A stretch of 64,000 nt of DNA from a phage: sequence record PZ049338.1. One strand, written 5' to 3'. The notes beneath the pieces were generated by a model. The model made no database searches. It saw only the letters and a program-made list of their open reading frames with translations, and was not told the DNA's origin. Positions within the stretch are counted from its first letter, which is position 1. Each line of letters starts with the position of its first letter. The position numbers and the translations under genes were made by a program. This document shows positions 2,758-36,062 of this stretch, piece by piece.

Positions 2758-3378
2758 TTACGCAGCTTTCTTGCTTGCTGCCTTGCTGCGCAGTTCACGC
2801 ATATTTTCAGCGGTGAACAGATCGTTGATGGCTTTAATGGCCATGTTACGCAGTACATCGGTATTCGCGCCGTTCTCAATCGCTTGCTGCAATTGGGATT
2901 GGATAGACGAGCGGATTGATTTGGCGGACTTATCCAAATCATATGACTTAGCATCGCGCTCCTTAGTCTTATTGGTATGCAGCAGGGAAGAGTATTCCGC
3001 AGCTACGAAGGCTTTTACCGCGTTACGATATGCAACCTTCTGCTCCTTAGATACCGGAGCTTCACCTTTCGCCGCGTCATGTTTCCAGTTGGTTACGGTG
3101 TAGGCTTTTTCTTTCTTGTCTGCGGACGTGTTATCTTTATCCATTTTGATAACCAGTTTTGCCATAGTCGGCAGCAGGTCATTGATAACAGCACGTTGCA
3201 ATTGTGGGAAACGTTTAATTGCATTGATGAAAAATTCAATATTGGACGGATTGCAGGAGTCTTTACCCCAATAATCGGTCGCAACTACCTCAAAGGTTTT
3301 AACCAGACCGCGCGAACCTTCACGGAAGTTTTTAACGGATTCGATAATCAGCATTTGGGTAGCGTTCAATTTAGCCAT
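2758..3378 (-). CDS. hypothetical protein (206 aa), first sizeable gene of the leftward unit
   Basis: ORF track; GAGGAA SD 9 nt upstream of ATG at 3378. Confidence 0.6.
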   Translation of the reverse strand: MAKLNATQMLIIESVKNFREGSRGLVKTFEVVATDYWGKDSCNPSNIEFFINAIKRFPQLQRAVINDLLPTMAKLVIKMDKDNTSADKKEKAYTVTNWKHDAAKGEAPVSKEQKVAYRNAVKAFVAAEYSSLLHTNKTKERDAKSYDLDKSAKSIRSSIQSQLQQAIENGANTDVLRNMAIKAINDLFTAENMRELRSKAASKKAA

Positions 3379-3434
3379 GATAATATTCCTCGTTGTTTAC
3401 ATTGATTGAGTTATGAATCAGCACGATTCGATAA

Positions 3435-3466
3435 ATAGCCCACGCATCATGGGAATTATGGGCTAT
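3435..3466. other. inverted repeat (ATAGCCCA ... TGGGCTAT) just upstream of the first leftward gene
   Basis: 8-bp arms read directly; possible operator or RNA structure. Confidence 0.35.
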
Positions 3467-4238
3467 TCGAATCATCACTATTTGCGACTTGTCCAGTCGC
3501 CGGACTGATGCGCGCCTGATGGATACGGGGGCGAGTACCTTTTCACTTTACACATCAAATTTTACTCCCCGACTATCTGCGAATTAAAGATTAATCAGTG
3601 TTAATTGACGCAGTGACACGCCTCAAACGAGATAATCAACCATTGAAATCAATCAAGGCCGATTAAATAAAACTTGTCGTTGTTGTGCTACGTTGTCGCA
3701 TTCTTTATATAATCTTTCGGTAGTCTTAGTTGTGAGTAGGTAGAATTTTCATTCATTCGCTATCACTATTCGATTACGCGGCCTCTCGGCCTATCATCTT
3801 TTCAATCACTAGCCCACTTATTCTATTCAGTGAGATACCAAATTAACACTATACCGACGCTTAGATGTATAGATGATGTTCTAGTCTGGTTAAATCAGTC
3901 TTTACTTTGATGGCAACATGACACGTTGTGTAAACCGCTGGCACTTAAGCCGTCACGCATTGCGTTTTACGCCACCTTTTCAACCTTCCTTGCAAGCCTT
4001 GCGACTTTTAAGGTCGGGGCAAACTACTCCGGCTAAGTATTCAGTGTCTTATGTTTCCCACTGTTACCCGCTTTCGTCAATAAGCCGTAATTTAAAACCA
4101 TCCGTTAATCAGGTATGATTGCCACATTGTCGGGGGGAAGTATCCGACTGATGTTTACCGTTGGTTATACGGCGGGCTATTGCCCCTTAAGGTGCGGCCT
4201 ATGTGGTAGGCTGCCTTTGATGGGTAATGATTAACCTA

Positions 4239-4248
4239 TCCCATCTAT
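4239..4248 (+). promoter_or_regulatory. TCCCATCTAT motif copy 1
   Basis: exact 10-mer, repeated 4 times in the control region. Confidence 0.35.
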
Positions 4249-4269
4249 TTACTACTGGATAACTAATCT

Positions 4270-4292
4270 AGTTAATCCACATATATTAAGAG
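4270..4292 (-). promoter_or_regulatory. 23-bp repeated element, inverted copy (CTCTTAATATATGTGGATTAACT on minus strand)
   Basis: 1 mismatch to copies at 25156-25178 and 47913-47935. Confidence 0.4.
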
Positions 4293-4315
4293 ATAATCCC
4301 TTAATACGTCCTACT

Positions 4316-4351
4316 TAAAACATTCTAGGTTATCCCTTCCTACCTTGTCAA
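4316..4351 (-). promoter_or_regulatory. sigma70-type promoter P1 (leftward): -35 TTGACA 4351-4346, -10 TAGAAT 4327-4322, 18-nt spacer
   Basis: hexamers read directly; AT-rich upstream. Confidence 0.5.
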
Positions 4352-4426
4352 CCTTACTTAGAAAATTCTTTCTTCTGGTTGACTCACCTGATAGTTACTT
4401 GGCTATTCAGCTTCACTATCTGGTAT

Positions 4427-4463
4427 GTGGTAGATTATAGGTTTAACCTTTCTACCTTGTCAA
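4427..4463 (-). promoter_or_regulatory. sigma70-type promoter P2 (leftward): -35 TTGACA 4463-4458, -10 TATAAT 4439-4434, 18-nt spacer
   Basis: consensus hexamers; shares CTACCTTGTCAA context with P1; AT-rich UP-like region. Confidence 0.6.
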
Positions 4464-4683
4464 TAAGATATTTTAATTTATCTTGCTGACCTTTACTACC
4501 TATCAGGCTTTCGCGTTGTTGCTGCGTCGTCCTGATATGATTAACTATACGCAATCTTTTCAGATATGCAAACTAATATTTTAATTATTTTCTAACTTTC
4601 TTTCATCTCACTGATTTATAACGGATTATTTCTTGATATTCTTTCTTGATTCAGTGGATAAGATACGGGATACGGCTTATCTA

Positions 4684-4693
4684 TCCCATCTAT
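4684..4693 (+). promoter_or_regulatory. TCCCATCTAT motif copy 2
   Basis: exact 10-mer. Confidence 0.35.
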
Positions 4694-4894
4694 AGCGTCA
4701 CCTTTCCACCTGGACAAATTGGAACATCAATCACCTTATCTATTCCCTACCTTTCCAGCTCATAGATTCATGCCTGATTGATGATCTTTCTTGTGAGCTG
4801 GAAGCTAAGAGATAACACCGCATGAATTAAAACTAGATAAAGGGCACTAGATAGAAACATGCGGAACGTTATCCCATACGTCTTAATTGCTATT

Positions 4895-4932
4895 ACACGG
4901 AAGAAAGGAAAGGAAGAAAGGAAGAAAGGAAG
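4895..4932 (+). repeat. polypurine tract (GGAAGAAAGGAAAGGAAGAAAGGAAGAAAGGAAGA)
   Basis: read directly. Confidence 0.7.
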
Positions 4933-5040
4933 ATACACCATACGGATTAATGCTTATCAAACTATCGTCGGGTAACGGTGCAATGATTAAGATTGATGCG
5001 ACCAATGGTCGTGTTATGACCTGCGGTCATGCGTACCTAT

Positions 5041-5198
5041 TATCAAAGTCAACAATCAAACGATGATTATCAAAGACGATTATCAAACGATAACTATCAA
5101 AGACGATTATCAAACGATAACCATCAAAGGATAACTATCAAAGGATAACTATCAAAGGATAACTATCAAAGGATAACTATCAAAGGATAACTATCAAA
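5041..5198. repeat. tandem array, about 12 units of 13-14 bp with core TATCAAAG/C (5 perfect GGATAACTATCAAA units at 5129-5198)
   Basis: read directly; iteron-like. Confidence 0.85.
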
Positions 5199-5803
5199 GG
5201 CTGGCATTTTAAACACCGACGTTTTAGCCTCACAAAATAACGGGAAGAAATATAGCTCAGGATACTTACTATTAGTAAGAACATAACCATGCTGGTTATT
5301 ATTACCATGCTATCTATGCGATGGCTTATCATTAGGTAGCTAACTATAACATCGTGCATCATATTCCATTGGTATCATTAGATGACTAATCATGTGCGTG
5401 CATAGTATATCACTTGAGATAATAACGCATGAATACTATATCACTTCCCATTATCAGCGGAGGTATATTAATCCCGTGAACTAATAGCCAACTAATTACT
5501 TATGATATAGTTGCCAATGTTATTAATAGATGAGGTATGGTATCATTTGTATATTAATAATAAGCAAGCTATCTATTCACTGGATGCAATTACAGTATTG
5601 TGCTTCATCCAATAGGCTGTATAATCGTTGTTACATTGTTAACGGTATATGTGCCGACCCACTTCCCCCTTTTTAAAAGTTGTGTGCGCAGCTAGCCCCC
5701 TATACCACCGCGTGAGAGTATGAGAATGAGGATACCCTAACCAATTAATGGGTGAGAGTGATTGCCCGTGGGTATGACCTCCCATCAGACAGTACTCATG
5801 ACC

Positions 5804-5813
5804 TCCCATCTAT
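5804..5813 (+). promoter_or_regulatory. TCCCATCTAT motif copy 3 (GACCTCCCATC also at 5776-5786)
   Basis: exact 10-mer. Confidence 0.35.
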
Positions 5814-5872
5814 CAGTGTCAGTAGAGGCCGAAGGCCTTGGTCTTACCAAAGGTAAGTGACTTCCCATCTAT

Positions 5873-5882
5873 TTTCACTTTC
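5873..5882 (+). promoter_or_regulatory. TCCCATCTAT motif copy 4
   Basis: exact 10-mer. Confidence 0.35.
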
Positions 5883-5896
5883 TTTCAGTGTAAACA

Positions 5897-5920
5897 GTGT
5901 AAATCTGTAAGAAAATTGAA
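5897..5920 (+). promoter_or_regulatory. repeat TTCAGTGTAA-N-TCTGTAA copy 1 (candidate late promoter or packaging-related element)
   Basis: near-identical copy at 6168-6188; TAATCTGTAAG also at 12433-12443 upstream of capsid gene. Confidence 0.3.
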
Positions 5921-6167
5921 AATTTTGAACTAAAGTTCATGTACGAAGGAGATAGAGATTGATAAGAGATTCTTAAACAGTTTCTTATATATCTCCTTCT
6001 TATCCATTCTTATATATCCTCTCTTCTCTCCTCTATAAAAGCCCCTCTTATATTTAAAAATCCATAAACCAATTACGCTGAACAAGAAGAAAGTATAAAG
6101 GAGGTTATGACCTTCCATCTGATTGATAAGATGAGTACCCATCAACTATTTTAATCTTTTCAGTGTA

Positions 6168-6188
6168 AGTCTGTAATGTTTTCCATTT
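6168..6188 (+). promoter_or_regulatory. repeat TTCAGTGTAA-N-TCTGTAA copy 2
   Basis: see copy 1; about 135 bp upstream of first late gene. Confidence 0.3.
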
Positions 6189-6322
6189 ATCAGTGCTATA
6201 TGTAACTGTAGCATCTATAAGGTTTATGTAATTAATAAATAGATAGATGGGTGGATGGTGGGAACTACATTCGCTGGAAGCGAAACTATTGCTTCTGGCA
6301 ATTATTAATTGAAGGAGTGAAC

Positions 6323-6709
6323 ATGTCTGACAATAACGAATTACTTGATTCCATTGTTGAAGGTCGCTCCGTCAAGACTGGACAGTTTGTGAAGGGTAAT
6401 ACTCAAGGTAAGGGCCGTCCGAAAGGTAGCCGAAACAAAATGACTCAACGAATGTTGAATCGTGTTGCTGAACGAAGTGAAGATGGTTTGTCTATGGAAG
6501 AAATCATGATGGATATCGCCCAAGACCCTCAAATGCCAGCAGAGCTTCGCTTTAAAGCAGCAGCTAAAGTTTCTGACCTCGTTTATCCTAAAGCATCTTC
6601 TGTTGAAGTTAAGATGGACGATAAAGAAAGCATGACTAAAGAACAGATTGATGCTCGCCTTAAAGCTTTGCTTAGTGGTGGCCATACAACTGAAGACACT
6701 GAGGACTAA
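6323..6709 (+). CDS. putative DNA-binding protein / terminase small subunit candidate (128 aa) with AT-hook-like GRPKGSR motif
   Basis: start moved to internal ATG 6323 (GAAGGAG SD); sits 2 genes upstream of large terminase; function by position only. Confidence 0.4.
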   Translation: MSDNNELLDSIVEGRSVKTGQFVKGNTQGKGRPKGSRNKMTQRMLNRVAERSEDGLSMEEIMMDIAQDPQMPAELRFKAAAKVSDLVYPKASSVEVKMDDKESMTKEQIDARLKALLSGGHTTEDTED

Positions 6710-6948: not shown

Positions 6949-7276
6949 ATTCCTTGCCAGCCAGCGAGGTTGACTTTCGTCGGGTAAGTCGTGAAAGAAC
7001 CCGACCGCGAATTCAAAGTCTAGCTAGGGTGACAAGAGTATGACAGGCTGTCCTAGATAAGTGTCGGTACTCAACTAGATGTTGTATTGGATGTTAGGTA
7101 AGTCAAGAGAGACAAGCCACGGTCGGGGTCGTCCACGTTAAACATTAAAACCCCGCCCCTCGAATACACGACTGAAGATTTTCCAAATGACTAAAGGTTC
7201 AGAAAATTTTGCAGTTGCCGCTTTGCGGATTAGGGTGAGAGCCCTCGAAAGGTTTATAGTATACACGGAGGTAAGG

Positions 7277-8761
7277 ATGGATTTTAATGAAATCGACTTA
7301 GACTCCCTTCCGGAACATATCAAGTGGGAAATTATTGACTTACTAGAGGAAAGGGAAAGGGTCATTAAATATAATCGGATTAACGAATTCGAACCCTACG
7401 AGTTCCAAAAGAATTTTTATTCTGCAAGTGCTAAATTCAAAAGACGCTTCCTTTGTGCGGCTAACCGAGTTGGTAAGTCTTACTCTGAAGCGGTAGAAGT
7501 GTTTTATCATTTGTCAGGTCTGTACCCTGAATGGTGGGACGGACACAGATTTAAGAAACCAATCCTCTTATGGGCTGTTGGTATCACCGGTGACTCAACT
7601 CGAAAGGTGTTGCAGAAGGAGTTGTTTGGTACACCGATGGGCAAAGACCAAGATGCATTGGGAACAGGCGCTATCCCTCGTGACCTGATTGACATTGAGA
7701 ACATCGAGAAAGACGGTAACATCATCAAAATCGCAAAGGTTAAGCATCATGATAAAAATGGTGACTTTGATGGTTGGTCTACTATCGAATTCCGCTCAAC
7801 TCAACAGGGTGAGCACGTACTGATGGGTGCGACTGTAGATTATATATGGTTAGATGAAGAAGACCCGTTCAAGTCTATGGAAATCTATGCACAGTGCGTT
7901 ACTCGTACTGCTACTACTGGTGGTTTGATTACCATCACCGCTACTCCTGAGAACGGTTTGACGAAACTGGTAGACCTGTTCATGAAAGACACGTCAGGTT
8001 ACTTATATTTTCAGAATGCGACATGGGATGATGCTCCCCACTTAGATGAAGAAACTAAAAAAGAGTTGTTAGCATCTATTCCGACATGGCAGCACGAAAT
8101 GCGAAGCAGGGGGATTCCAATGATGGGCGAAGGTTTGATTTACGATATTGCAGAGTCTTCTATTATTACAGAGCCGATTGAGATTCCATCTCACTGGCGT
8201 AGACTTGCAGCAGTTGATATTGGTATCAGTCACGATACTGCGGTTGTATGGACAGCTTACGATGCTGCTACTGACTGTATCTATGTATATGACTGCTACT
8301 CAGCAGATGCGGGCGTTCCTGCTATGCACGCTACAGCTATTAATGCTCGTGGCAACTGGATTCCTGTTATTCTTCCACACGATGCTGATAACACTGAACG
8401 TGGTTCAGGTCGTAGTGTCGCGTCTTATTATGCAGAGGCTGGTGTCAACGTGATGCCTGAGACGTTCTATAATCCACTGGATTGGACGGGTAAGAAGAAT
8501 AACTTCGTAGAACCGGGCATTATGGAAATCCTTCAAAGGATGAAGACTGGTCGCTTTAAAGTGTTTAGCACTTGTGGCAAGTTCTTCGAAGAAATGCGTC
8601 GTTATCACCGTAAAGATGGCAAGATTGTCAAAGAATTCGATGATACAATGGACGCAGCACGATATTCAGCACTCTCAGTAATTGGACGTGGTGTAAGTGC
8701 AGGTGAAGCAAGTGCTGGCTACAATGCAGCATTCAATGATAACTGGAATTACAATTACTAA
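7277..8761 (+). CDS. terL: terminase large subunit (ATPase/nuclease)
   Basis: start moved to ATG 7277 (GGAGG SD); Walker A-like AANRVGKS; about 495 aa; position upstream of portal. Confidence 0.8.
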   Translation: MDFNEIDLDSLPEHIKWEIIDLLEERERVIKYNRINEFEPYEFQKNFYSASAKFKRRFLCAANRVGKSYSEAVEVFYHLSGLYPEWWDGHRFKKPILLWAVGITGDSTRKVLQKELFGTPMGKDQDALGTGAIPRDLIDIENIEKDGNIIKIAKVKHHDKNGDFDGWSTIEFRSTQQGEHVLMGATVDYIWLDEEDPFKSMEIYAQCVTRTATTGGLITITATPENGLTKLVDLFMKDTSGYLYFQNATWDDAPHLDEETKKELLASIPTWQHEMRSRGIPMMGEGLIYDIAESSIITEPIEIPSHWRRLAAVDIGISHDTAVVWTAYDAATDCIYVYDCYSADAGVPAMHATAINARGNWIPVILPHDADNTERGSGRSVASYYAEAGVNVMPETFYNPLDWTGKKNNFVEPGIMEILQRMKTGRFKVFSTCGKFFEEMRRYHRKDGKIVKEFDDTMDAARYSALSVIGRGVSAGEASAGYNAAFNDNWNYNY

Positions 8762-12580: not shown

Positions 12581-13546
12581 ATGGCAGATACTACTTTAGT
12601 TTCTTATGACCTGAATGGTAAGAAACTTTCCTTTGCAAACTGGATTTCTAACCTGTCTCCTACCGAGACCCCGTTCGTTTCCATGACTGGCAAAGAAGCA
12701 ATTAATCAGACTCTGTTCCAATGGCAGACTGATACGCTGGAAACCGCTAACCCGAACAACGCAGTTGTTGAAGGTTCTGCTGCTGAAGCTCCAGTTCGTA
12801 GCTCTACCACTGTACTGAACAACGTTACTCAGATTCTGCGTAAAGTGGTTCGTGTTTCTGATACCGCAAACGCTCTGGCGAACTACGGTCGTGGTCAGGA
12901 ACTCCAGTACCAGATGGAAAAAGCTGGTAAAGAAATCAAGCGTGACCTCGAAGTTGCTCTGCTGCGTAACGGCGCTAAAGTTGACGGTAACGGCACTACT
13001 GCTCGTAAGACCGCTGGCTTTACTGCTCTGGTTGCTGCTAAAGGTGTAGCTGACCCGGACACTGGTGCTGTTGTTCATAAAGAGACTGCTGTTAAGTCTA
13101 AGATTTCTGAAGCAGAACTGTTTGACCTGACGTACAACCTGTACCTGTCTGGTTCTAACGCGAACATCATCATGTTCCACCCGAAACACGCAAGCTTCTT
13201 CGCTTCCCTGATGGACACTCCGGCTGCTGGTACTAACCGCATGAAGATGTTCGACGGTAGCGATACTAAGTTTAACCAGTATGTTTCTAGCGTAGTTGAC
13301 CCGCTGGGTCAGTTGTACAAGCTGATTCCTAACCGTTGGATGGATGAGACTGAGATCTACTTCTTCACTCCTTCTGACTGGGATGCTGCTCGAATGGATT
13401 GGGGTAGTCGTGGTACTACCACTGTTGCTGGTGCTCACGAACACGCATTGCGTATTACTGGTGGTATCTTCTCTCAAGGTGATAACCAGAAGCACAACAA
13501 CATTCAACCATTCATTACTGTATATATGTGGCGTCGCATTTCTTAA
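12581..13546 (+). CDS. major capsid protein (321 aa)
   Basis: position after scaffold, GAGGAG SD, size typical; not motif-verified. Confidence 0.65.
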   Translation: MADTTLVSYDLNGKKLSFANWISNLSPTETPFVSMTGKEAINQTLFQWQTDTLETANPNNAVVEGSAAEAPVRSSTTVLNNVTQILRKVVRVSDTANALANYGRGQELQYQMEKAGKEIKRDLEVALLRNGAKVDGNGTTARKTAGFTALVAAKGVADPDTGAVVHKETAVKSKISEAELFDLTYNLYLSGSNANIIMFHPKHASFFASLMDTPAAGTNRMKMFDGSDTKFNQYVSSVVDPLGQLYKLIPNRWMDETEIYFFTPSDWDAARMDWGSRGTTTVAGAHEHALRITGGIFSQGDNQKHNNIQPFITVYMWRRIS

Positions 13547-13559
13547 TAGGAGTTAGTCC

Positions 13560-15266
13560 ATGCCTTTAATGAGATTACGAAATGTAGGGAAGACTGGTGT
13601 AACAACAGATATCCCTTCATATGATTTAAAACCCTCGGATTGGTCTTGGGCTAACAACGTTCGATTCCAAGCAGATAGGGTTCAGAAAGTGGGTGGCTCT
13701 AAGGCCGCCCTAACTCGTCTTATGCCACAAGAACATCCACTTGGTGTCGTACAGTGGCCTCTTACTGAATCACTGTTATATGGTACTTGGAAGCCTGGGA
13801 CATCTAAGGGTAGTTTATGGGTGGCTCGTGGTAACTCACATGAGAATATTTCAAAAAGAGCCTCCGGAAGTAGTACACCTTTTGAATATGAGTGTTCTCC
13901 AGAGTATTCATGGGACTATACAACACTCTCTAACACAGTTATTTTTAATACTCGTCTTTCAGACCCACAAGGTATTAAGAATGGTCAAGCTTACTTCTCA
14001 GACCTTCCGGGTTGGGGTAAGCCCACAGCATCTACTACTGCAAACTGGAAAGCTAACCGAATTCGTGCATTTAAGAACTACTTACTTTGCATGGGTATGT
14101 GGGAGAATGGTGTAGAGTTTCCTCAGCGTGTACGATGGTCTGATGTTGCAATGGTCGGTTCACTTCCTTCTAATTGGTATGAAAATGACCAGACTAAAGA
14201 TGGTGGATTTAACGACCTGACAGACTCATTATCACACATCATTGATGGTCGTCCTTTGCGTGACTCCTTTGTTGTTTATACAAACCGAGACACATTCATC
14301 ATGGACTACGTTGGTGGTACAATGGTGTTCAACTTCCGTAAAATCTTCTCAGATTCAGGGATGCTTGCACCAAACTGTTGTGTTGAGTTTGAAGGTCAGC
14401 ACTTTGTTATTTCAGAGGATGACATTTTCGTTCACAACGGTTCCACTCGTAGGTCTGTTGCTACAGGTCGTGTGAAAGATTACCTCATGGCTCAGATTGC
14501 CTCTAACAACCACGAAGCTACTCGTGTATATGCATATCCTGCTCGTAAAGAGATTTGGATTACATATGTTAGTGATGGTAACACTCCATCTAACGCTGAC
14601 GATAAGGTTTGGTCTTGTGATAAGGCTGCAATCTGGTCTTGGCAGTACGATACTTGGTCTTTTACAGACTTACCTAATATCTATGATATTGGTATCGGAT
14701 TATCACCTGAGACTGACTCTCGTTTCTGGTATGATAGTGAGTTCGTACCAACACCTGGAGACCCGACACAATATGGTGACTATCCGTGGGAAGATCCTAA
14801 GATTCCTGAAGATATTTGGAAGAACAAGGTTCAGGGGTTCACAAGACATGTAATGTTCGGTGCCTCATCTGATATGTGCTTCTACAACCTTGATAATGGT
14901 TACTATTGGGAGAAGTATGATGCGGTGTCTAAGACTATTTCCAAAGTTCCAGTTGTTTGTGAATTAGAGCGTTCTGCACTGGATTTCGATGAACAAGAAC
15001 CTGATATCTCTTACCATAAATGGTGGAGGGCAGTTTACCCACAGATGGGTGGTACTGGTACAGTTCGATTCTATGTTGGTGGCTCTAACTCCCCTAACGG
15101 TGAACCTGTTTGGGATTCTTGGCAGGACTTTGATATCGAACTTGATTCTAAAGTTGACTGCTTCTCAAACTACAGATACCCAGCAATTAAACTGCTTGAT
15201 TCTACGGAAGGTGAGTGGTCAATGGTTGGATATGATGTTGAATACTTCAAAGAAGGGAATAGATAA
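13560..15266 (+). CDS. virion structural protein (568 aa), possible tail/adaptor component
   Basis: late block position; AGGAG SD. Confidence 0.5.
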   Translation: MPLMRLRNVGKTGVTTDIPSYDLKPSDWSWANNVRFQADRVQKVGGSKAALTRLMPQEHPLGVVQWPLTESLLYGTWKPGTSKGSLWVARGNSHENISKRASGSSTPFEYECSPEYSWDYTTLSNTVIFNTRLSDPQGIKNGQAYFSDLPGWGKPTASTTANWKANRIRAFKNYLLCMGMWENGVEFPQRVRWSDVAMVGSLPSNWYENDQTKDGGFNDLTDSLSHIIDGRPLRDSFVVYTNRDTFIMDYVGGTMVFNFRKIFSDSGMLAPNCCVEFEGQHFVISEDDIFVHNGSTRRSVATGRVKDYLMAQIASNNHEATRVYAYPARKEIWITYVSDGNTPSNADDKVWSCDKAAIWSWQYDTWSFTDLPNIYDIGIGLSPETDSRFWYDSEFVPTPGDPTQYGDYPWEDPKIPEDIWKNKVQGFTRHVMFGASSDMCFYNLDNGYYWEKYDAVSKTISKVPVVCELERSALDFDEQEPDISYHKWWRAVYPQMGGTGTVRFYVGGSNSPNGEPVWDSWQDFDIELDSKVDCFSNYRYPAIKLLDSTEGEWSMVGYDVEYFKEGNR

Positions 15267-15490
15267 TGGCTGCAATCGACAGGACAAAACAACCCTATCG
15301 TATTTACAAACCACTCTTCCTAGATGAAGACCAGATTAAGATGGACTTAGACCGAGAGTTTGAGTCCATCTCTCAGGCACTCATTTGGGTAACGAACAAT
15401 ATGCTTATAATTGTTGATGCGGTCAATCCTCTTCTGATTGCTGCTGGTAAAGCACCTATTGTTCTTGAATATCCTAAGACGAATAGCTAA
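15266..15490 (+). CDS. hypothetical protein (74 aa), TAATG coupled
   Basis: ORF track. Confidence 0.45.
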   Translation: MAAIDRTKQPYRIYKPLFLDEDQIKMDLDREFESISQALIWVTNNMLIIVDAVNPLLIAAGKAPIVLEYPKTNS

Positions 15491-15502
15491 GGAGCTAATA
15501 AA

Positions 15503-16735
15503 ATGGGCAAGAAAAGTACACCGAAGCAGACCACTACTTCAAAAACTGAGAATAATCCGTGGGCTCCGGCCCAAGACCAACTCAAAGATATACTCTCTGA
15601 GGCTCAGAAACAATATGAAGCAACCGGTGGTCTCGATGGTAACTGGATTGATAAGAATTTCCCAGACTTAACACCAGAGATGAAAGCATCTCTTGGTAAT
15701 CTGGCATCTTCTGGTCAGTTAAATCAAGTAGCGGATAATATTAATAAGATTACCTCTAGTGCATCTACAAACGTAAATAATGCCTCTAGTGCATTATCTG
15801 GAATGACTTCTGGTGGCATTACTGGTCAGCAGATTAATGATTTGGCTAGCTCATTATATGATAATGAACTTGTTGACAGTCAAGTTACAAGTCTCACTGA
15901 TGATGCAATGTTAAACTACGACAAACAAGTTAATGCACTTAACCAAGCTGCTGGTGCAACTGGTAACATGGGCTCTTCTCGTGCTGGTGTTGCTCAAGGT
16001 GTTATGGCAGGTGAAACCAACAAAGCAATCGCTAAAGGTACAGCGGACATTACTAATGCCGCTCGTTCCTCAGCGTACAACCAAGCACTTGGTACACTGC
16101 AAGGTAATCAACAGACTAATCTGTCTGCTTCTGGCGCTCTTGGTAGTCTCGGTATGAACCAAGGTCAACTTCAAGCTAGTAACTCTGATATCTATCAGAA
16201 GGTTCTCCAGAACGAAGCTACTGCTGCTAACGTGTGGCAATCTCAAGCACAAGGTAAAGCTGATAACGATTGGTTCAACGCAACTGGTGCTGCTAATGGT
16301 GGCTGGGATAACCTGTCTAAATACTTGCAAATGGTTGGTGCCATTGGTGGTATGGGAGGTACTTCCAACTCTACCGTTACATCTAAGACCTCAGGAAGCA
16401 GTGGTGGTATGTTCAACTCCATCCTTGGTGGTGTTTCTACCGGTGCCGGTTTGATTGGTGCTGGTGCTCAAGCTGGTTGGTGGTCTGACGCTGCTATGAA
16501 GAAGAACGTCAAGAAGACTGGCAAGACTAAGAAAGGTACTAACAAATATGAGTGGGAGTGGAACAAGGCAGGTGAGGAGAAGGGTATGAAGGGTAAGGCG
16601 TCTGGTGTACTTGCACAAGATGTTGCCAAGAAGAACCCTGAAGCTGTTAAGAAAACTCCAAGTGGCAAGCTGATGGTCGATTATGATAAGACTGATGTTA
16701 AGCCTAAAAACTCTAAAGCTAAGAAGAAGAAATAA
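15503..16735 (+). CDS. Ser/Gly/Asn-rich structural protein, possibly fibre-like (C-terminal GVLAQDV...PEAV...VDY resembles fibre chaperone motifs)
   Basis: AAGGAG SD; composition; weak motif resemblance only. Confidence 0.45.
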   Translation: MGKKSTPKQTTTSKTENNPWAPAQDQLKDILSEAQKQYEATGGLDGNWIDKNFPDLTPEMKASLGNLASSGQLNQVADNINKITSSASTNVNNASSALSGMTSGGITGQQINDLASSLYDNELVDSQVTSLTDDAMLNYDKQVNALNQAAGATGNMGSSRAGVAQGVMAGETNKAIAKGTADITNAARSSAYNQALGTLQGNQQTNLSASGALGSLGMNQGQLQASNSDIYQKVLQNEATAANVWQSQAQGKADNDWFNATGAANGGWDNLSKYLQMVGAIGGMGGTSNSTVTSKTSGSSGGMFNSILGGVSTGAGLIGAGAQAGWWSDAAMKKNVKKTGKTKKGTNKYEWEWNKAGEEKGMKGKASGVLAQDVAKKNPEAVKKTPSGKLMVDYDKTDVKPKNSKAKKKK

Positions 16736-16754
16736 GAGCCTTCGGGCTCTTTTC
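16735..16754 (+). terminator. intrinsic terminator (AGAGCC ttcg GGCTCT + TTTTC)
   Basis: hairpin with UUCG loop and T-run directly after stop codon. Confidence 0.65.
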
Positions 16755-16770
16755 TTATAGGAGAATAGAA

Positions 16771-17631
16771 ATGGGTAATATCTTATCAGCAATCACAGAT
16801 GGTGCTTTGGATTCTATCAAAAGCCCCCTTAAGGTTGTAAAAGACATTGGTAAAGGTGATTTCAGCGGGGCATTTAAAAACCTCAAACACATTCCCGGTA
16901 ACCAAGAACGTGCTAACAAAGAGATTCTTCAATCTGCTGGTGTCCGAGGTTGGGTTGGTGACTATCCCGGTGAAAGTGCTGCTGCAATAGTTGGTTCTAT
17001 CTTTGGCGGTGCAGCCCTTATGGGTGGTGGAGCAGCCGCAGCCGGTGGTGCTGGGGCAGCAGGTGCTGGAGGTGCTGCGGGTGGTTCTGCTGCTCTTGGT
17101 GGTGCAGGTGCTGCCGGATATTTAGCACCTACTGCTGCTGGAGGTGTTGGTGCCACAGGTGCTGGCAGTAGCTTAGTATCTACAGGTGCTCTCTCAGCTA
17201 TCAGTTCCCAAGCCCCATCTACTGCTGCACTGTTACAGATGGGTAATGCTGGGGTTGGTGCATCTACAGCAACTGCTGGTGCTTCGTCCTTTACTCCTGC
17301 AATGTTAACAACTCAAGGTGCTGCTGCATCTGGCGGTACTTATGGTGCTGCTTCTGCTCCTGCAATTGCATTGCAAACACCTGCTGCCGGTGGTGCTTCT
17401 GCTGGAAGCTCTACAATGTCAAACCCTGAAACTTGGAATCAAATCTCTAAACTTGTGAACAGTGTTAAAAAACCAGAGCAAGAGAACCAAACACTTGCAC
17501 CTGTTCCAATGGGTTCGGGACATCGAGGTAACTTCAACTTCGACCGTAAGAATTTCCAAAATCAGGCACTAACTCAAACGTATGGTGAACTTTATAATAA
17601 ACCTACGAAAACACCGAATATTAAATTCTAA
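16771..17631 (+). CDS. Gly/Ala-rich low-complexity virion protein (286 aa)
   Basis: AGGAG SD; long GA-rich tract. Confidence 0.45.
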   Translation: MGNILSAITDGALDSIKSPLKVVKDIGKGDFSGAFKNLKHIPGNQERANKEILQSAGVRGWVGDYPGESAAAIVGSIFGGAALMGGGAAAAGGAGAAGAGGAAGGSAALGGAGAAGYLAPTAAGGVGATGAGSSLVSTGALSAISSQAPSTAALLQMGNAGVGASTATAGASSFTPAMLTTQGAAASGGTYGAASAPAIALQTPAAGGASAGSSTMSNPETWNQISKLVNSVKKPEQENQTLAPVPMGSGHRGNFNFDRKNFQNQALTQTYGELYNKPTKTPNIKF

Positions 17632-17642
17632 GGAGAGATTAG

Positions 17643-18197
17643 ATGGCTACTAACGCCTACTTAGAGCGCATGAATCAGCTCCGTTCAGAAAGACGTCAAG
17701 TTAAAACTAGACAGTTAGAAGAAATGGGTGTTCCGATTCGTCGCCCAGAACAACATAGTAATTATAATGGTGCTTCACCTTCAGGTGTTCCTACTGGAGA
17801 AGCTCCTATCCCTCAAGAAGATGAATCATACAAAGACTCCCACTTCTATAATGCGTTTGAAGGTTATAAACAGCGTGATGAGAAGTTTGGTAGTGTCATT
17901 GATGAACTCACTGAGTTAGCTACAGGTCTTCGTGAGCAGGTTAAACTAGGGTATATGCCTGAGCAAGTTGCTCGTCAACGATTGACACAATTCGTAGGTG
18001 ATACTCAACAGCAATTTGTACGTGCTAAGCCTCAACTGGAAAAAGAAAAGCAGAATAAGCAAATGGAAGCAATGTTAGGTGTATTAACTGGTGTTACACA
18101 GCAACAGCAGATGCAACAGCAGCAAGCCAAAGCTAACGAGCCTATCCCAGCAGAGGGTATTTCAGCAGAAGAAGCACAACAAAGGGGAGGTTGGTAA
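17643..18197 (+). CDS. hypothetical structural protein (184 aa)
   Basis: ORF track; AAGGAG SD. Confidence 0.45.
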   Translation: MATNAYLERMNQLRSERRQVKTRQLEEMGVPIRRPEQHSNYNGASPSGVPTGEAPIPQEDESYKDSHFYNAFEGYKQRDEKFGSVIDELTELATGLREQVKLGYMPEQVARQRLTQFVGDTQQQFVRAKPQLEKEKQNKQMEAMLGVLTGVTQQQQMQQQQAKANEPIPAEGISAEEAQQRGGW

Positions 18198-19840
18198 TGG
18201 CTGATTCTAACAGCCTGTCATTTGGTGCTCTCGCACTGAATACTGGCATTAATAATTTAAAGAAGGTTGTTAATCCTGTTATTAACACCTCTCTCGCTGA
18301 AAATGATTTCAAAGAGCAGAATGGTCGGTATCCAAACTCTAAGGATGAGTTGAATACTTTTATCAAGCAGGGTGGTCAATCTGAACGTGACCGTCGTAAT
18401 CCTGCTCCAACTCCTGCTCCTGCACAAGCGGCTCCAGAACAAGCTCCGGGTGAACCATTTAACCCATCTAGTCTGTTAGTTCCAGTGCAGAAACATCTTC
18501 CTACTCAACAGACACCTGATAGTGCTCAGGATAAGGCCGCACAGCAACGTGGGGCTCTTAATCAGCAAGCACAAGGCAAAGCCCAAGCTGTTGCGAAAGC
18601 ACGCTCACAGGGCTACCAGGACGTTCCTAATGCTGCTCAAGACCCAGCGGGTAACTTAGCTGCTCGTAACGCTAACAAAGCTGCTGGTGTGGGTGGTACT
18701 TCTGGTGAGATTAACTTTAATAAAGAAGGCGAAGTACCTTCTCCTCAACAAGCTCAGAACATGCAGCTTGACCAATTGGGTAAGAAGACAGCCTTCAATA
18801 TGGATGATATGCCTGAGTGGTATGAGTCTAATTCGTTTAACTATGGACTCATTTCTTTTGGTCTCAATCTGTTATCTGGTAACGATTTGGCTACCTCTTT
18901 TGGTGCCGCTGGTGAAGCTTTCTCTTCTATGTATGGGCAAGAGCGTCGTCAGATGTGGGCGCAAGATTTGATTAGTCAGGGATATTCCCCTACAGAGGTT
19001 GAAGAGTACATCCGTACTGGTAAGTCTGACGTATTGACCGACCCGATGGAGAAACAGGCTAAGCAGATTCAAATGGCTACTGGTTTGGCTAATCTGGAAG
19101 CTATTCAGTACGAGAACTCTGATGAAGAGCGTCAGTACAAGAAAGACCAAGATAAGTTTGAACGTGATATCAAGATTCAGCAACTCAATGATTCCCGTGC
19201 TGCTCGTGCTGAAAGTGCTGCCCTCCGTCGTGAACAGATGGCTATCAATCAGGAGGAAAGAGAGTTACGTCGTCAAGAGCGTGCTGAGAAAGCTGCTGCG
19301 AAGGGTCAGGAGTATAAAGAAAGCTTGGCTAAGGCTGAGAACTGGTATACCCGTGCTCGTCAAGGTTATAAGAACTACGAAGATACAGTTAAGAGTTATG
19401 GTGGTGTTAACAACATTTACTCCGATAGTGCTTTAGGTAAGATTACTCAGGCTGCACTGACTGATGCTGTGTTCTCTGGTACCTCTGTCAAAGAAGCTGT
19501 TTCGAAGGGTGTTGACGAGAAGTTCGTTACCACTGTTAACCGTGAACGTGAGTTCTTGGCTCCTCTGCTCCGTAAGGACTCTGGTGCTGCAATCTCTCAA
19601 TCTGAATGGAAAACTACGGGTGAGATTTACTTCCCACGTCCGGGTGATACCCAGCAAACGATTGACCAGAAAGCTCAATCTCGTGTTGTAGCAATGTTGG
19701 CAACCAACCCTCATGCATCTGGTGAACTCCGTGGTGCAGTTGATGCTTACACTCGTGGTGAGATTTCCTCTCTCCGTGAGAAAGGTGGTCGAGTTTATGC
19801 TCAATTACCAGACGGAAGGTGGTTGGAAATCCAACAATAA
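18197..19840 (+). CDS. virion protein (about 547 aa)
   Basis: start moved to ATG 18197 (GGGGAGG SD; TAATG overlap). Confidence 0.5.
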   Translation: MADSNSLSFGALALNTGINNLKKVVNPVINTSLAENDFKEQNGRYPNSKDELNTFIKQGGQSERDRRNPAPTPAPAQAAPEQAPGEPFNPSSLLVPVQKHLPTQQTPDSAQDKAAQQRGALNQQAQGKAQAVAKARSQGYQDVPNAAQDPAGNLAARNANKAAGVGGTSGEINFNKEGEVPSPQQAQNMQLDQLGKKTAFNMDDMPEWYESNSFNYGLISFGLNLLSGNDLATSFGAAGEAFSSMYGQERRQMWAQDLISQGYSPTEVEEYIRTGKSDVLTDPMEKQAKQIQMATGLANLEAIQYENSDEERQYKKDQDKFERDIKIQQLNDSRAARAESAALRREQMAINQEERELRRQERAEKAAAKGQEYKESLAKAENWYTRARQGYKNYEDTVKSYGGVNNIYSDSALGKITQAALTDAVFSGTSVKEAVSKGVDEKFVTTVNREREFLAPLLRKDSGAAISQSEWKTTGEIYFPRPGDTQQTIDQKAQSRVVAMLATNPHASGELRGAVDAYTRGEISSLREKGGRVYAQLPDGRWLEIQQ

Positions 19841-19855
19841 TATTGGAGATGATAA

Positions 19856-22800
19856 ATGAATTTTGTGACTGACCCTAAATTGCTTGAGGAGTTAAACGCA
19901 GGATTCAATCCACAGGGGGCTTCGGCCCCTTCGGTTGATTCCCAAACTCAAACCGCTCCACAGGAAGCAGAAACTAACTGGGGTATTTACGCTAAAGAAG
20001 ATGGTTCCATTATGGACACTATCGGTTCTGGTTTGACCAGGATGGGGCGTGCTACCGCAGCAGCTATGGTTCCTAGTGATGATGAGGACATGTCGGATTA
20101 CGCATTAGCTCGCGCTCGACGTGCTAACGCAGAGTACAAAGCTGATGCTGAAAAGCTTGGTGTTGCAGGTCAGGTAGTTGCAGGTGCTGCAACATATGCC
20201 CCTGTTATTGCCGCTGGTATTGCTAACCCTCTGGCAGGTGCTGCTATGATGGGTGGTGCTACTACTGCTGACTCTCTTGCTGCACAGATTGATAACAATC
20301 AAGATTTAGACCTTAACAGTGCAATTGCTGCCGGTGCTGCATCAGCAGGTGTCGACCTTGCTACAATGGGACTCGCCTCTCGTGGCATGAATGTTGCTAA
20401 GGAATTAACATCCCCTGTTAAGCGTGCAATTGCCGGTACTGGTATACAAGCAACTCAGGGTGCTACTTCTAACGCAGCAGCTCAAGCTGCTATTAACTTA
20501 GCATCTGGTCGTCCTTGGAATGAAGGTCTGATAGAAGCTGCTGCCATTGGTGGTGTTGCAGGTGGTGGTTTACATGCTACCCTCTCTGGATTGAACCACT
20601 CTGCAGGCACTCCACCTAATAAGGGTGGTCAGAAGGCTACAGAAGACCAAGTTAAGTTCGAAACCAAAGATGGGATTACTCCTACGGGTGATTATCGTAA
20701 TCAAGTGTACGAATACGCAAACCAACGTCACCAGTATGATGAAGACATTAACAACATCGACATTGATGATACTAATGGTTTGGATGCCGCTGTAAATGCT
20801 AAAGTAGGCATGGCACTTAACAACGGTACTGCCTCTGCTATTCAGGGCACTGCTAAGCTGTTAGATAAGTTTAAAGTACCTAAGACTATTAACTTCTGGG
20901 ATATGGATGTTGGTAATGGTATCAGTAGCCAACCTGTTGGTAACATAGCTCGCGATTGGTTCAATTTCAGTGACAAAGACCTGTTGAAAGCTGGTGAATC
21001 TATTGGCCGTGCCAAGCAGACATTGACTGGACGTACCAAAGCACTGGAACAGGGTGAGTTTGAGGAATCCTTCCTTCGTCAGATGAAAGACTCTTACGAT
21101 AAGGCCCAAAACGACATCTTAGGGCGTGCAGAATCCAACTGGCGTACCGTCGATAACATTCGTTCACAAATGACCGGTGCAGAGCGTCCTATGCGTGATT
21201 CTCTGAATATCCTGTCTCGTAACCTTGAAGACTACTCTAAGATGGTACGTGATGCCAACTTAGGTAAAGCCCCTAACACCGATACTCTCCGTGCTGTTGT
21301 AGAAAGCATTGAAGTTAATGCTAAGAAGACTGGACTTCGTGACAAGCTGAAATCTCTTGTAGATGACGCTGAGCAGTTTGATGGTATCACAAACTTAGAG
21401 TCTGCACTGTTGTTTGCAAAAGGTGCTCAGAAGGTTGCTCCTGGCATCCATCGTGCTAACCCTGACCCACTGAAAGCATCAAGCCAGAAGGCTGATATGC
21501 TGGATGCTGCTGCTGTTGCAACAGGTCAGTTCTGGTTACCTGTGGCTCGTCGTGGTCTTCGTGAGATTGGCGGTAAACGTTCTCAAGCTCGTTTGCGTGG
21601 TGAGAAGGCTCAAGGTGAAGTTGTTTCTCAATCCTTGGCTCGTGACCCACGTCCTGATTTTGTTAACCAAGCTGCTCAGCGTGGTGATTTCAAAGGTGCT
21701 GCTGATGAAGCTGCTGCTGATTTGGAATCAATGGGTATTTCTACTGGTCAGAAAGATGTATGGGGTCGTGAAGCCGAGGCTGCACCTGTACAAGAGACTG
21801 CACCAATCCAAGAAGCCCCGGTTACTCCGGAACCTAAAGTCGATGTTTGGGGTCGTCCTCGTGAGTTCACAGACCTGACTGGTCGTGGAGTACGTGAGGC
21901 AGAAGCAGCTAAGGCTGAAGCAGAGGCCGCTAACGCACCTGTGGTAGACCCAGAAGCAGAAGCCCAGATAAGGTTCAACCTTGGTGAAAGACTCGCTCAG
22001 GATGCTCGTGTGGACGCTCAGAGACGTGCTCCTGCACCAGAACCTGAACCTGCATTCACGGATAAAGACTCTCGTCGTGTAGATGACTTGCAAACCAAAC
22101 AGAACACCGATGGTTTAACATCCTCTGAAGCTCGTGAACTTGAGTCACTTATTCAGCGTAAGCCTACGCCTGAAGTTAAGGAAGCAGAACCTGAAGCCCC
22201 TAAGAAAGAAGGTGTTAAAGCTTCTGAACTGGCTCGTAAACCCATCTCTGATAAGATTAAAGAGTTCAAGGAGTTGTCTCCTGAAGCTAAGAAAGACCCT
22301 CAACTGATTAACGAGTTTACTCGTAACAGACGTCTTCTCTCTGATGCTGATAAAGCTGTATCCTCTAAGGCTACTGCTATGTCTGTTCCTCAGGAAGATA
22401 TTTGGAGAATCATTGAACGTCAAGGTGGCTTGGAGTCTGTATTTAAGGATGGTCACTCTGCTGAACGTGGTCTGAATATTCTTATGCAGAAAGATAAGAT
22501 TGACTTGCAACGTAAAGCTGATATCGAAGCTAAGAATGCCGAAGATGCCGCTGACAGTGTTAATACTAAATCAGGGAAAGGTGAGACAACCTCTACTGAT
22601 GAAGTTGATACTGGAAAGGTAATCGAAGACATGAAGAAAGACTTCATCTCTAAAGGTGTTTCTGGTGAGACATTTGAAGCTGCACAAGTCCGCGCTGAAC
22701 AGACCCTTGGCCCAGATTATACACCAACGCAGTTAGCTAACGTTGTTAAATTACTGGCAAAAGAGAAAGCGGCTAAGGCTCGTGAAGAAGCTAAGAAGAC

Positions 22801-31476: not shown

Positions 31477-32046
31477 TTAACTCTGGAAGTTTACTGATTC
31501 TCTGTCAATGTTAGCGACTAATTGACTTCGAATACGATGGAGACTGACGTAAATGTTATTTGAAGACATGCCATACTTATTGGCAACATCTTTAGTCGTG
31601 AGGTTCTTCAGGTAAACATCGGTGAACAATTCACGTTCTGATTCCTTAAGAGTCTCAAAAGCTCTCTGAACAAACGAGGAAGCTTCATCGGCTAGTAACT
31701 CACGAACAGGGTCAGTTAACCCATTATCATGGCATTCAAATTCGAGGACATTATCGTACATCTCCGTATCAACTCTGTCGAACTCTCGGCGTACATAACC
31801 ATAACGAACATTGTTCGCAATAGTACCTATAACACCGCCTAACTTATCCCACTGGATTCTGTCCCAATACTGCCAAATCCTTAGCAGAGTTTCTTGAGCC
31901 AAATCTTCAGCCAGATGGTAATCTTTTTCCATGTAGTAGAATTGTTTCTGGAGAGGTTTCCAGAACTCTTCGTACAACTCTTCAAAAGTATATGTTTCTC
32001 GTTTTGGAGTAGGGGCACTAATTCTCTTAGCCATCATACATTCCAT
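31477..32046 (-). CDS. ECF-type sigma factor (regions 2 and 4)
   Basis: DLAQETLLRIWQYWDRI (region 2-like) and LTTKDVANKYGMSSNNIYVSLHRIRSQL (region 4 HTH). Confidence 0.7.
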   Translation of the reverse strand: MECMMAKRISAPTPKRETYTFEELYEEFWKPLQKQFYYMEKDYHLAEDLAQETLLRIWQYWDRIQWDKLGGVIGTIANNVRYGYVRREFDRVDTEMYDNVLEFECHDNGLTDPVRELLADEASSFVQRAFETLKESERELFTDVYLKNLTTKDVANKYGMSSNNIYVSLHRIRSQLVANIDRESVNFQS

Positions 32047-36002: not shown

Positions 36003-36062
36003 TATTCCACACCTGCAATTAATGTTACTGTATATTTACGACCACCTCTAACATCTTCAACC

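Follow-up and report, generated by a model that had tools for sequence, protein, structure and literature searches.

The subject of this analysis is a short repeated DNA element, the 10-mer TCCCATCTAT, and the longer box that contains two of its four copies, in the control region of a phage genome (sequence record PZ049338.1; the whole stretch of 64,000 nt is called the window). The window belongs to a Grimontviridae phage. The region under study is 92–93% identical to that of PKM.Hi.22.6 (Hi226) and PKM.Lu.22.1 (Lu221), two plasmid-dependent Salmonella phages (PMC10782986), and Salmonella phage 7-11 is a more remote relative. No credible gene was found between positions 3479 and 6322 (~2.8 kb), a divergent region with leftward early genes on its left and rightward late genes on its right, and the name control region, given to it in an initial annotation made from the sequence, was correct. 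The late side begins with two terminase genes.

6323–6709, plus strand: terS-like gene (128 amino acids, ATG at 6323), first gene of the late operon, assigned by homologue profile
7187–8761, plus strand: terL, followed by the structural genes

The profile, built from nine homologues of the 6323–6709 product, matched only two solved structures at E < 0.01, 7joq_I (8e-4) and 6w7t_I (4e-3), and both are small terminases.

The 64-kb window was scanned for the 10-mer on both strands. Exact copies were found at 4239–4248, 4684–4693, 5804–5813 and 5863–5872, all on the plus strand, and there was no further exact copy on either strand. Only 0.14 copies were expected, and none of 100 dinucleotide-preserving shuffles reached four, the maximum being one. 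When one mismatch was allowed, the sole extra copy nearby was the inverted ACCCATCTAT (6243–6252, minus strand). The initial annotation had the count and the strand right, but it placed the start of the fourth copy at 5873 instead of 5863, and the end of its span, 4239–5882, was likewise off by 10 (5872 is correct). The two sites it described as related are real, namely TGACCTCCCATC at 5775 and TGACCTTCCATC at 6108. It had named a frequency no higher than background as the result that would speak against the motif; compared with shuffled sequence, the motif stands far above composition-matched background (4 vs. 0.14) and is restricted to the non-coding control region. The repeated 10-mer is non-random, and two of its four copies are parts of a longer conserved box.

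The box tATGAC-N4-CATC(T/A)A, whose common core is (A/G)TGA-N5-CATC, is present at the 5804 and 5863 copies, at both related sites and at a fifth position, 6131; the additional box matches were TGACTTCCCATC at 5858 and ATGAGTACCCATC at 6131. Four exact copies of the extended box TGACYTYCCATC were detected, all inside 5775–6119, and at one mismatch it gave five matches against 0.97 expected, a number that 0 of 100 shuffles reached. The degenerate form RTGA-N5-CATS matched 18 times in the window, with 5 of the 18 on the plus strand within 370 nt. Neither the box nor the composite of box and CAGTG was found in the window outside 5774–6168. The boxes form two arrays (boxes 1–3 and boxes 4–5), and each array closes with a box, a T-rich tract and CAGTGTAA.

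5774–5786, plus strand: box 1 of array 1, ATGACCTCCCATC (GACCTCCCATC at 5776 in the initial annotation), invariant in three close relatives
5798–5819, plus strand: box 2 of array 1, short form, the 22-mer ATGACCTCCCATCTATCAGTGT, with the 10-mer inside it at 5804–5813
5826–5857: twin mini-hairpins AGGCC-GAA-GGCCT and CTTACC-AAA-GGTAAG between boxes 2 and 3 (-7.9 kcal/mol, z -3.6)
5857–5903, plus strand: box 3 of array 1, long form GTGACTTCCCATCTAT (10-mer at 5863–5872), then a 13-nt T-rich tract and two copies of CAGTGTAAA (5886–5903)
6107–6119, plus strand: box 4 of array 2, ATGACCTTCCATC (GACCTTCCATCT near 6105 in the initial annotation)
6131–6168, plus strand: box 5 of array 2, long form, ATGAGTACCCATC with a 17-nt T-rich tract and CAGTGTAA

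The twin mini-hairpins (5826–5857 of the window, 5771–5800 of L001) have 5–6-bp stems and 3-nt loops (GAA/AAA here; GAA/GTA in the second Hi226 copy). One pair is present in the window, two in Hi226 and none in Lu221, and in the two versions both stems are retained by different sequences. A nut-like boxA/boxB unit, made of box and GAA-loop hairpin, was considered and rejected, the hairpins being absent from Lu221, 7-11 and other genera. A covariance-model scan of 3300–6500 against Rfam gave no family, only a spurious miRNA match (E 0.85), and no tRNA; no similarity of the element to plasmids or Escherichia coli genomes was found.

To follow the box across related phages, the sequences upstream of terS were compared from 7-11, GAP52, ECO319P1, BUCT695, P59, Privateer, CsaP_009, LAh_8, Vp_R1, APT65 and the IMG/VR contig L025. 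All of these regions, from eight lineages of elongated-head phages, carry same-strand arrays of the box. The consensus tATGAC.tSSCATCwA was obtained from 28 non-redundant boxes of 7-11, GAP52, BUCT695, P59, LAh_8 and Vp_R1. In every genome the boxes lie between terS and a conserved block at the presumed edge of a terminal repeat (described below), all on the plus strand save one palindromic case. They come in two forms: the short form is a box followed by 3 nt and CAGTGT, and the long form, always the last box of an array, is a box followed by ~16 nt of T-rich sequence and CAGTG(TAA). The layout of box, ~16 nt and CAGTG was also observed in 7-11, GAP52, BUCT695, P59, LAh_8, Vp_R1 and APT65. 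The window, GAP52 and ECO319P1 carry the 22-mer ATGACCTCCCATCTATCAGTGT without a single difference, and P59/Privateer and 7-11 carry it with one to two mismatches; genome-wide, 7-11 and GAP52 share only ~10% nucleotide similarity (PMC8948821). Among the three close relatives the N4 spacer varies and ATGA and CCATC are constant, and an alignment of six genomes left the invariant islands TATGA, CAT, CAG, TGTAAT and CTA. A scan of IMG/VR with a degenerate 22-mer returned three known phages only.

No ATGAC-N4-CATC box was found in the kuraviruses proper (phiEco32, L035), although their TerS proteins are 44–50% identical to the TerS-like protein of the window and share its N-terminal GRPKGSR motif. 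In a further IMG/VR lineage (L030–L032, TerS identity 52–55%), related boxes (three to four copies of GCCATTCATAG), a pyrimidine tract and CAGAGG lie directly upstream of terS, and the terminal-repeat-edge block lies farther upstream, separated from terS by ~1.2 kb and one or two genes. Since the boxes of this lineage stay at terS despite the distance of the block, the boxes track terS and its upstream region and not the genome end. In Vibrio phage Vp_R1 (L013), the first full box follows eight tandem 11-bp units of TAATGATAGNN (2660–2745), each corresponding to the left half of the box; these units are helically phased, unlike the arrays of other genera. Repeat arrays at late promoters or at terS are familiar in kind, but the box, its two forms and its family-wide conservation appear to be undescribed, and the available text of the accounts of 7-11 transcription (PMC8948821, PMC4331800) does not mention the boxes.

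Sites for a replication initiator were one reading offered by the initial annotation. As origin iterons, the boxes would have in their favor that they are direct repeats accompanied by T-rich tracts, possible unwinding elements, in a large non-coding region where an origin would be expected. However, they are spaced irregularly (24, 59 and 24 bp in the window, 20–62 bp in relatives), no initiator gene is adjacent, and the boxes of L030–L032 follow terS, between coding genes. Denser origin-like repeats also occur elsewhere, including a 14-bp unit repeated 11 times at 5051–5200, the region 5290–5450, and DnaA-box-like sequences at 900–970 of 7-11. Initiator binding is not favored and is considered very improbable.

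The late promoters beside the arrays can be compared with those of 7-11, of which Lavysh et al. (2022, PMC8948821) mapped eight, using primer extension or in vitro transcription or the two together. Their consensus is GTAAtg-N16-aCTA, and they are read by the host core polymerase with the phage sigma factor SaPh711_gp47 (PMC8948821). P1 of 7-11 is GTAATG-(16)-gCTA and P1 of GAP52 is GTAATa-(16)-ACTA (PMC8948821 supplement). Two such promoters precede terS in the window, and a gene for a sigma factor of the phage lies on the other strand.

5907–5932, plus strand: predicted late promoter P1a, GTAAGA-N16-ACTA, by the consensus of PMC8948821
6173–6198, plus strand: late promoter P1b, GTAATG-N16-GCTA, homologue of the validated P1 of 7-11, driving terS-terL
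31477–32046, minus strand: gene for a phage ECF-type sigma factor (Pfam Sigma70_r2 and r4_2 above cut-offs; phrog_1740, RNA polymerase sigma factor)

The ECF sigma factor of the window is presumed, by analogy with the function of 7-11 gp47 (PMC8948821), to be the reader of the GTAAtg-N16-aCTA promoters. P1a is found at the same place in 7-11 (1369), GAP52 (1350), P59 (2632) and Privateer (7171), and it is missing from the published promoter list. GTAA-N19-CTA matched 10 times in the window, and 10 of 10 matches were on the sense strand of the local genes.

Each array of the window is followed closely by one of these promoters: P1a and P1b start 42–50 bp downstream of the last box of their arrays. 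Across genomes each array is followed by a late promoter, with 33, 41–42, 50–54 or 73 nt from the last box to the -35 element, and arrays ending at GTAA-N19-CTA were found in the window, Hi226, Lu221, 7-11, GAP52, ECO319P1, BUCT695, P59, Privateer, CsaP_009, LAh_8 and L025. The gap between box and promoter is occupied by a T-rich tract and one to three GTAA-containing CAGTGTAA units. Boxes accompany only the promoters in front of terS. A promoter-specific association across related genomes, as expected of an upstream activator or operator site, was thus observed. The distances are roughly 10-nt periodic, yet they are 51 nt and 54 nt within Privateervirus; a helical phasing of the box-promoter distance is hinted at, though weakened by this difference within one genus and by the 9-nt CAGTGTAAA unit, which generates the increments.

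The initial annotation had also proposed promoter elements for rightward transcription. Taken literally, as core promoter elements, the boxes would be suitably placed on the sense strand upstream of the first rightward gene, and the last box of an array has a fixed distance of ~16 nt to CAGTGTAA, which holds a -35-like GTAA. The validated promoter type, however, is GTAAtg-N16-aCTA, and the boxes hold neither part: no GTAA was found inside any TCCCATCTAT copy or box, the GTAA lying 33–73 nt downstream of the last box. No nCTA was found at N16 after CAGTGTAA or the short-form elements, and the 16-nt spacer with the -10 element was seen only at the neighboring P1a and P1b. No sigma-70 -35/-10 pair overlapping any motif copy was detected in a scan of 3300–6500, and no AATGTA of the phiEco32 type was detected on the plus strand at or beside the boxes; Lavysh et al. 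did not find the phiEco32-type element in 7-11 or GAP52 either (PMC8948821). The claim in this literal sense is largely refuted, and we regard it as extremely improbable. A first model of our own, with CCCATC as the -35 and AGTGTA as the -10 element of a phiEco32 gp36-like sigma factor, was dropped in favor of GTAA as the -35 element and aCTA 16 nt on as the -10 element, as in Lavysh et al. (PMC8948821); that the composite of box and CAGTG occurs at one locus only is a further reason against it. Guzina and Djordjevic had predicted the repeat tgtgatgttata as a 7-11 promoter (PMC4331800), and this repeat is unrelated to the later experimental consensus GTAAtg-N16-aCTA.

P1a lies 266 bp upstream of the P1 homologue and would give a non-coding leader of ~270 nt, which opens with a long hairpin at 5945–5999 (-9.6 kcal/mol, z -3.1). 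Between P1a and array 2, at ~5990–6060, there is a G-poor, CU-rich tract of ~70 nt, whose composition, not sequence, is kept in 7-11, GAP52, BUCT695 and P59; it could be a Rho-loading tract, an S1-binding tract or a polypyrimidine DNA element.

On the other side of array 1 lies the block at the presumed edge of a terminal repeat.

5655–5749, plus strand: conserved block GACCCACTTCCCCCTTTTT-N19-GCT/AGCCCCCTATACCACCGCGTG..AATGAGGATACCC, 71–79% identity across genera

This block is the sole part of 5480–5800 that BLAST found across genera. Its homologue in phiEco32, by alignment, is the right edge of a 193-bp direct terminal repeat whose last letters are ...CCCCCTTTTTAGGAAACGCGCGGCGAGCGGCT (SU10 paper, PMC4281155), and it has CCCCCTTTTT ~20 nt before GCT/AG. 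The alignment predicts a putative genome end near 5694/5695. PhageTerm gave "novel ends" for Privateer (PMC7881722). The GenBank records of APT65, LAh_6 and SE131 hold no terminal repeat and break at arbitrary points, and no record with two copies was returned when the junction region served as a BLAST query. Box 1 starts 80 bp right of the presumed repeat edge, and 180 bp separate the end of the box region from the TerS-like gene downstream.

The sites that terminases recognize are usually located beside or inside terS, as in lambda, P22 and SPP1, and the position of the boxes agrees with this. The main rival explanation is that the boxes are the sites of the adjacent small terminase and mark the start of packaging at the left end, possibly together with autoregulation of the terminase operon. 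The adjacent gene product is a homologue of small terminases, with nothing else significant in the profile search; the boxes are directly repeated in a single orientation at one locus and start close to a phiEco32-like repeat edge; the eight 11-bp-phased ATGATAG half-boxes of Vp_R1 are as expected for DNA wrapping a ring-shaped oligomer; and inverted box-like sites occur left of the block (5320–5332 and 5381–5393, minus strand). Against it, the boxes of L030–L032 are ~1.2 kb and one or two genes away from the block, which is awkward for a phage that cuts exact terminal repeats. The kuraviruses have a TerS with the same GRPKGSR motif and yet are boxless, GAP52 and BUCT695 are without a block-proximal array, and the strict pairing of last box, T-rich tract and CAGTG(TAA) beside each promoter would be left unexplained. 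We consider this explanation unlikely. The box-like sites left of the block are ATGATAAGCCATC at 5320–5332 (minus strand) and a palindrome, ATGACTAATCAT, at 5381–5394 (both strands); minus-strand ATGAYAAGCCATS sites were seen at comparable positions in LAh_8 and P59.

Two further features of the region concern its transcripts. A rightward sigma-70-like promoter, TTGTGC-N16-TGTATAAT, was seen at 5599–5626, ~35 bp upstream of the conserved block. The Hi226 version (TTGACT..TAGAAT) is nearer to the consensus, GAP52 and ECO319P1 have a perfect one (TTGACA-N17-TATAAT), and the promoter is not among the validated ones of 7-11 (PMC8948821). The other feature lies in the terS leader.

6240–6262, plus strand: TAGATAGATGGGTGGATGGTGGGAAC, a conserved G-rich element of the 5' leader of terS, with the inverted motif copy ACCCATCTAT forming its first part

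The G-rich GATGGGTGGATGGTGGGAAC is found just upstream of the terS ribosome-binding site and is kept in 7-11, GAP52, ECO319P1, BUCT695, LAh_8 and L025; a related G-rich sequence, GGAGGTGGAAC, is present in L030–L032. A 32-nt insertion absent from Hi226 and Lu221 lies at 6265–6300 and includes a terminator-like hairpin (6273–6299) in the terS 5' leader.

These transcripts allow for an element that acts as RNA in the rightward leaders of the 5599–5626 promoter and P1a, for example as the site of a regulator of translation or stability or as partner of the G-rich element. All boxes are on the transcribed strand, array 2 is downstream of P1a, and array 1 is downstream of the sigma-70-like promoter, which is better kept in Hi226 and GAP52; in addition, CCTCCCATCTATC (5802–5814) is complementary at 12 of 13 positions to GATAGATGGGTGG (6242–6254). 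However, GAP52 and BUCT695 have lost this complementarity, the G-rich element is absent from P59, and the pairing of RNA with 6240–6262 was rejected as not conserved. P1/P1b start downstream of all boxes, so that the main terS mRNA is without them, and Rfam gave no match. The rightward sigma-70 promoter is only predicted, and in 7-11 just the two leftward early promoters were confirmed (PMC8948821). An action at the RNA level therefore appears improbable.

The remaining two copies of the 10-mer lie more than 1 kb to the left, near the early promoters, and are called class A here.

4239–4248, plus strand: class A copy 1, a half-box in CTATCCCATCTAT (4236–4248), identical in Hi226 and Lu221
4684–4693, plus strand: class A copy 2, in CTATCCCATCTAT (4681–4693), kept in Hi226 and degenerate in Lu221
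4351–4322, minus strand: leftward sigma-70 early promoter TTGACA-N18-TAGAAT, 11/12 match
4463–4434, minus strand: leftward sigma-70 early promoter TTGACA-N18-TATAAT, 12/12 match

We infer that the two promoters are the positional counterparts of two validated early promoters upstream of gene 151 of 7-11 (PMC8948821). The class A copies bracket them and share only CTATCCCATCTAT, the right half of the box. The copy at 4239 is ~70 nt downstream of the predicted start site of the 4351–4322 promoter and can pair weakly with GATGGG at 4219–4224 (hairpin of -4.1 kcal/mol, z -2.0). The copy at 4684 is ~220 bp upstream of the 4463–4434 promoter and is part of a local CTTATCTATYCC repeat. Neither has the ATGAC half or a CAGTG partner, and both are absent from 7-11 and other genera. 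The single pool of four copies in the initial annotation therefore divides into two classes, of which only the copies at 5804 and 5863 belong to boxes. The class A copies may be weak half-sites for a box-binding protein or derivatives of the local repeat. Alternatively, they could be a chance coincidence in a low-complexity region rich in ATCTAT and CTAT strings, as their incomplete form, their absence outside the closest relatives, the degenerate state of 4684 in Lu221 and its place inside the CTTATCTATYCC repeat would suggest. On the other hand, two further same-strand exact 10-mers in ~2.3 kb are expected ~0.005 times, as extrapolated from the shuffles, and the 4239 copy is invariant in all three relatives; for these two copies alone, chance is a somewhat unlikely explanation.

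Leftward of these copies, a non-coding leader of ~830 nt (3480–4320, minus strand) leads from the early sigma-70 promoters to the first early gene. It is GC-richer, hairpin-rich and partly kept in 7-11, and it gave no Rfam match. For early transcripts Lavysh et al. postulate antitermination by a mechanism that "remains to be defined" (PMC8948821). Between the class A copies and the conserved block, ~11 tandem copies of the 14-bp unit GATAACTATCAAAG lie at 5051–5200, with a weakly DnaA-box-like GGATAAC; Hi226 and Lu221 have a single unit at that place and no array. The array may have arisen by expansion of the repeat, in what is a putative region for an origin.

What the sequences show is a conserved cis-element that is confined to one locus and one strand and is coupled in position to the two late promoters preceding terS. 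From this pattern we infer protein binding at the boxes and an effect of it. Sites for a regulatory protein, the other proposal of the initial annotation, are the best-supported reading for the copies at 5775–6143, which are tied to two rightward promoters in every related genus examined. The reading that we tentatively favor, and to which we give somewhat less than an even chance, is that the boxes are putative recognition sites of a sequence-specific DNA-binding protein that acts only at the two terS-front late promoters. Host RNA polymerase with the phage ECF sigma factor would read P1a and P1b and so start the operon of terS, terL and the structural genes; the box-binding protein could set the strength or timing of these promoters, or couple late transcription to the start of packaging. 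Candidate binders, by position only, would be the TerS-like product (6323–6709) and an early protein.

60022–60327: gene for the early HTH protein, phrog_323, "transcriptional regulator, D5-like"

Several observations weigh against a box-binding regulator of these promoters. Late promoters elsewhere in the window and in 7-11 are boxless, as is P1a of GAP52. All eight 7-11 late promoters, including P1, were transcribed in vitro with core polymerase and sigma factor alone, and the late transcripts seen in vivo (P12 gave none) share the same late kinetics (PMC8948821). Because P1 of 7-11 works in vitro in this way, the boxes are dispensable for basal activity, and P1 is not known to be regulated differently from the others. 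The distance from last box to -35 element varies from 33 to 73 nt, and even within one genus it is 51 nt or 54 nt, which does not agree with a strict activator geometry. A simple activator model gives no obvious task to the promoter-distal short forms, among them the 22-mer, the most conserved of all. Array 2 is part of the predicted P1a transcript, and the predicted 5599–5626 promoter is upstream of array 1, which leaves room for a role as RNA.

A more elaborate arrangement would give the short forms a place. The box and the -35-like CAGTG(TAA) could form a bipartite module, at which a phage protein, possibly the small terminase, docks beside the site of sigma region 4 of the ECF holoenzyme; the short forms, including the 22-mer, would then be landing pads or decoys that concentrate polymerase or couple terminase transcription to packaging. 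We regard this as rather improbable.

Other candidates were tried and rejected. Small open reading frames were considered, as the ATG of the box is in frame in 7-11 and the window (M-T-S-H-Q/L, spacing of 24 or 27 nt), but there was no consistent ribosome-binding site; the position of the stop is not conserved, the "His" codon is CAT in every case, with no CAC, and other genera have spacings that 3 does not divide. Among host factors, compared by eye with their consensus sequences, none of sigma-54, IHF, NarL, CpxR and DnaA fits family-wide: sigma-54 (TGGCAC-N5-TTGC) has a partial match in P59 variants only, IHF has ATCAA present and TTR absent, the NarL heptamer is found in box 5 only, and CpxR (GTAAA-N4-GTAAA) has the wrong spacing in P1a. 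The nick consensus of LUZ24/tf-like phages, TACT/RTGMC, matched in its RTGMC part only, and the boxes are at a single locus.

Differences from the close relatives were also seen outside the control region. At 13375–13381, in the open reading frame 12581–13546, the window is without 8.96 kb of Hi226 (13407–22366, including tail genes). The junction is inside the major-capsid open reading frame and joins its N-terminal part to the C-terminal end of a different gene; either the deletion is genuine and the genome defective, or the assembly collapsed here. The window alone, and not its close relatives, has an HNH endonuclease gene (36063–36524) beside the DNA polymerase gene; in Hi226 the polymerase gene is instead split by a 610-bp insert, and there are two further genes, one for endonuclease VII and one of 411 bp; the window has none of these. 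These presence/absence differences resemble those of mobile elements.

36004–36474 and 36973 of the window: mobile-element-like differences
45764–46374, 54175–54559 and 40256–40667 of Hi226: mobile-element-like differences

Among tailed podophages, the only ones known to depend on conjugative plasmids (Hi226 and Lu221) belong to the Grimontviridae and their relatives, and plasmid-dependent phages are considered as tools against the spread of antibiotic resistance. Late transcription in this group was worked out only in 2022, in a study that describes the core promoter and does not determine the genome ends (PMC8948821). A box found only at terS, in eight lineages, gives a handle on a regulator or a packaging signal. 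It could be used as bait for DNA affinity (the 22-mer), as a reporter element, and as an annotation marker for the left-end control region. Should the small terminase turn out to bind the boxes, they would be what defines the family's packaging signal.

Several known systems resemble the boxes in part. The late promoters of 7-11 belong to the same family, with the same genome position and promoter sequences, and the boxes of the window lie directly upstream of their counterparts; the published bipartite consensus does not include the boxes (PMC8948821), which are found only at the terS-front promoters. phiEco32's middle and late promoters (tAATGTAtA, gp36 sigma factor and gp79) come from a related group with the same layout and equivalent promoter positions, but their type is different and independently acquired (PMC8948821), and phiEco32 has no ATGAC-N4-CATC boxes.

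Like the window, lambda (cosB R1–R3) and SPP1 (pacL/pacR) have repeated short sites beside terS, and the neighbor of the boxes is a TerS homologue. The pac region of SPP1 overlaps the terminase promoter region. Unlike these sites, the boxes of a related lineage are ~1.2 kb from the repeat edge, and the kuraviruses with a homologous TerS are boxless. The SRL and SRR of T7 are reportedly arrays of short same-strand repeats just inside the short direct terminal repeat. The resemblance is in the same-strand short repeats just inside a terminal repeat of a podovirus that packages its DNA in the T7-like way; in T7 the units are 7 bp long and flank the terminal repeat on either side, whereas the boxes are 13–22 bp, on the right side only, and tied to promoters.

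The p4 sites of phi29 are likewise several sites for one protein in a divergent region between early and late genes, upstream of the late promoter. They are inverted repeats at a fixed -82, whereas the boxes are non-palindromic direct repeats at variable distance; also unlike phi29, the promoters of the window use a phage sigma factor, and 7-11 is without early shut-off. A switch like that of phi29 would fit the class A half-sites near the early promoters of the window.

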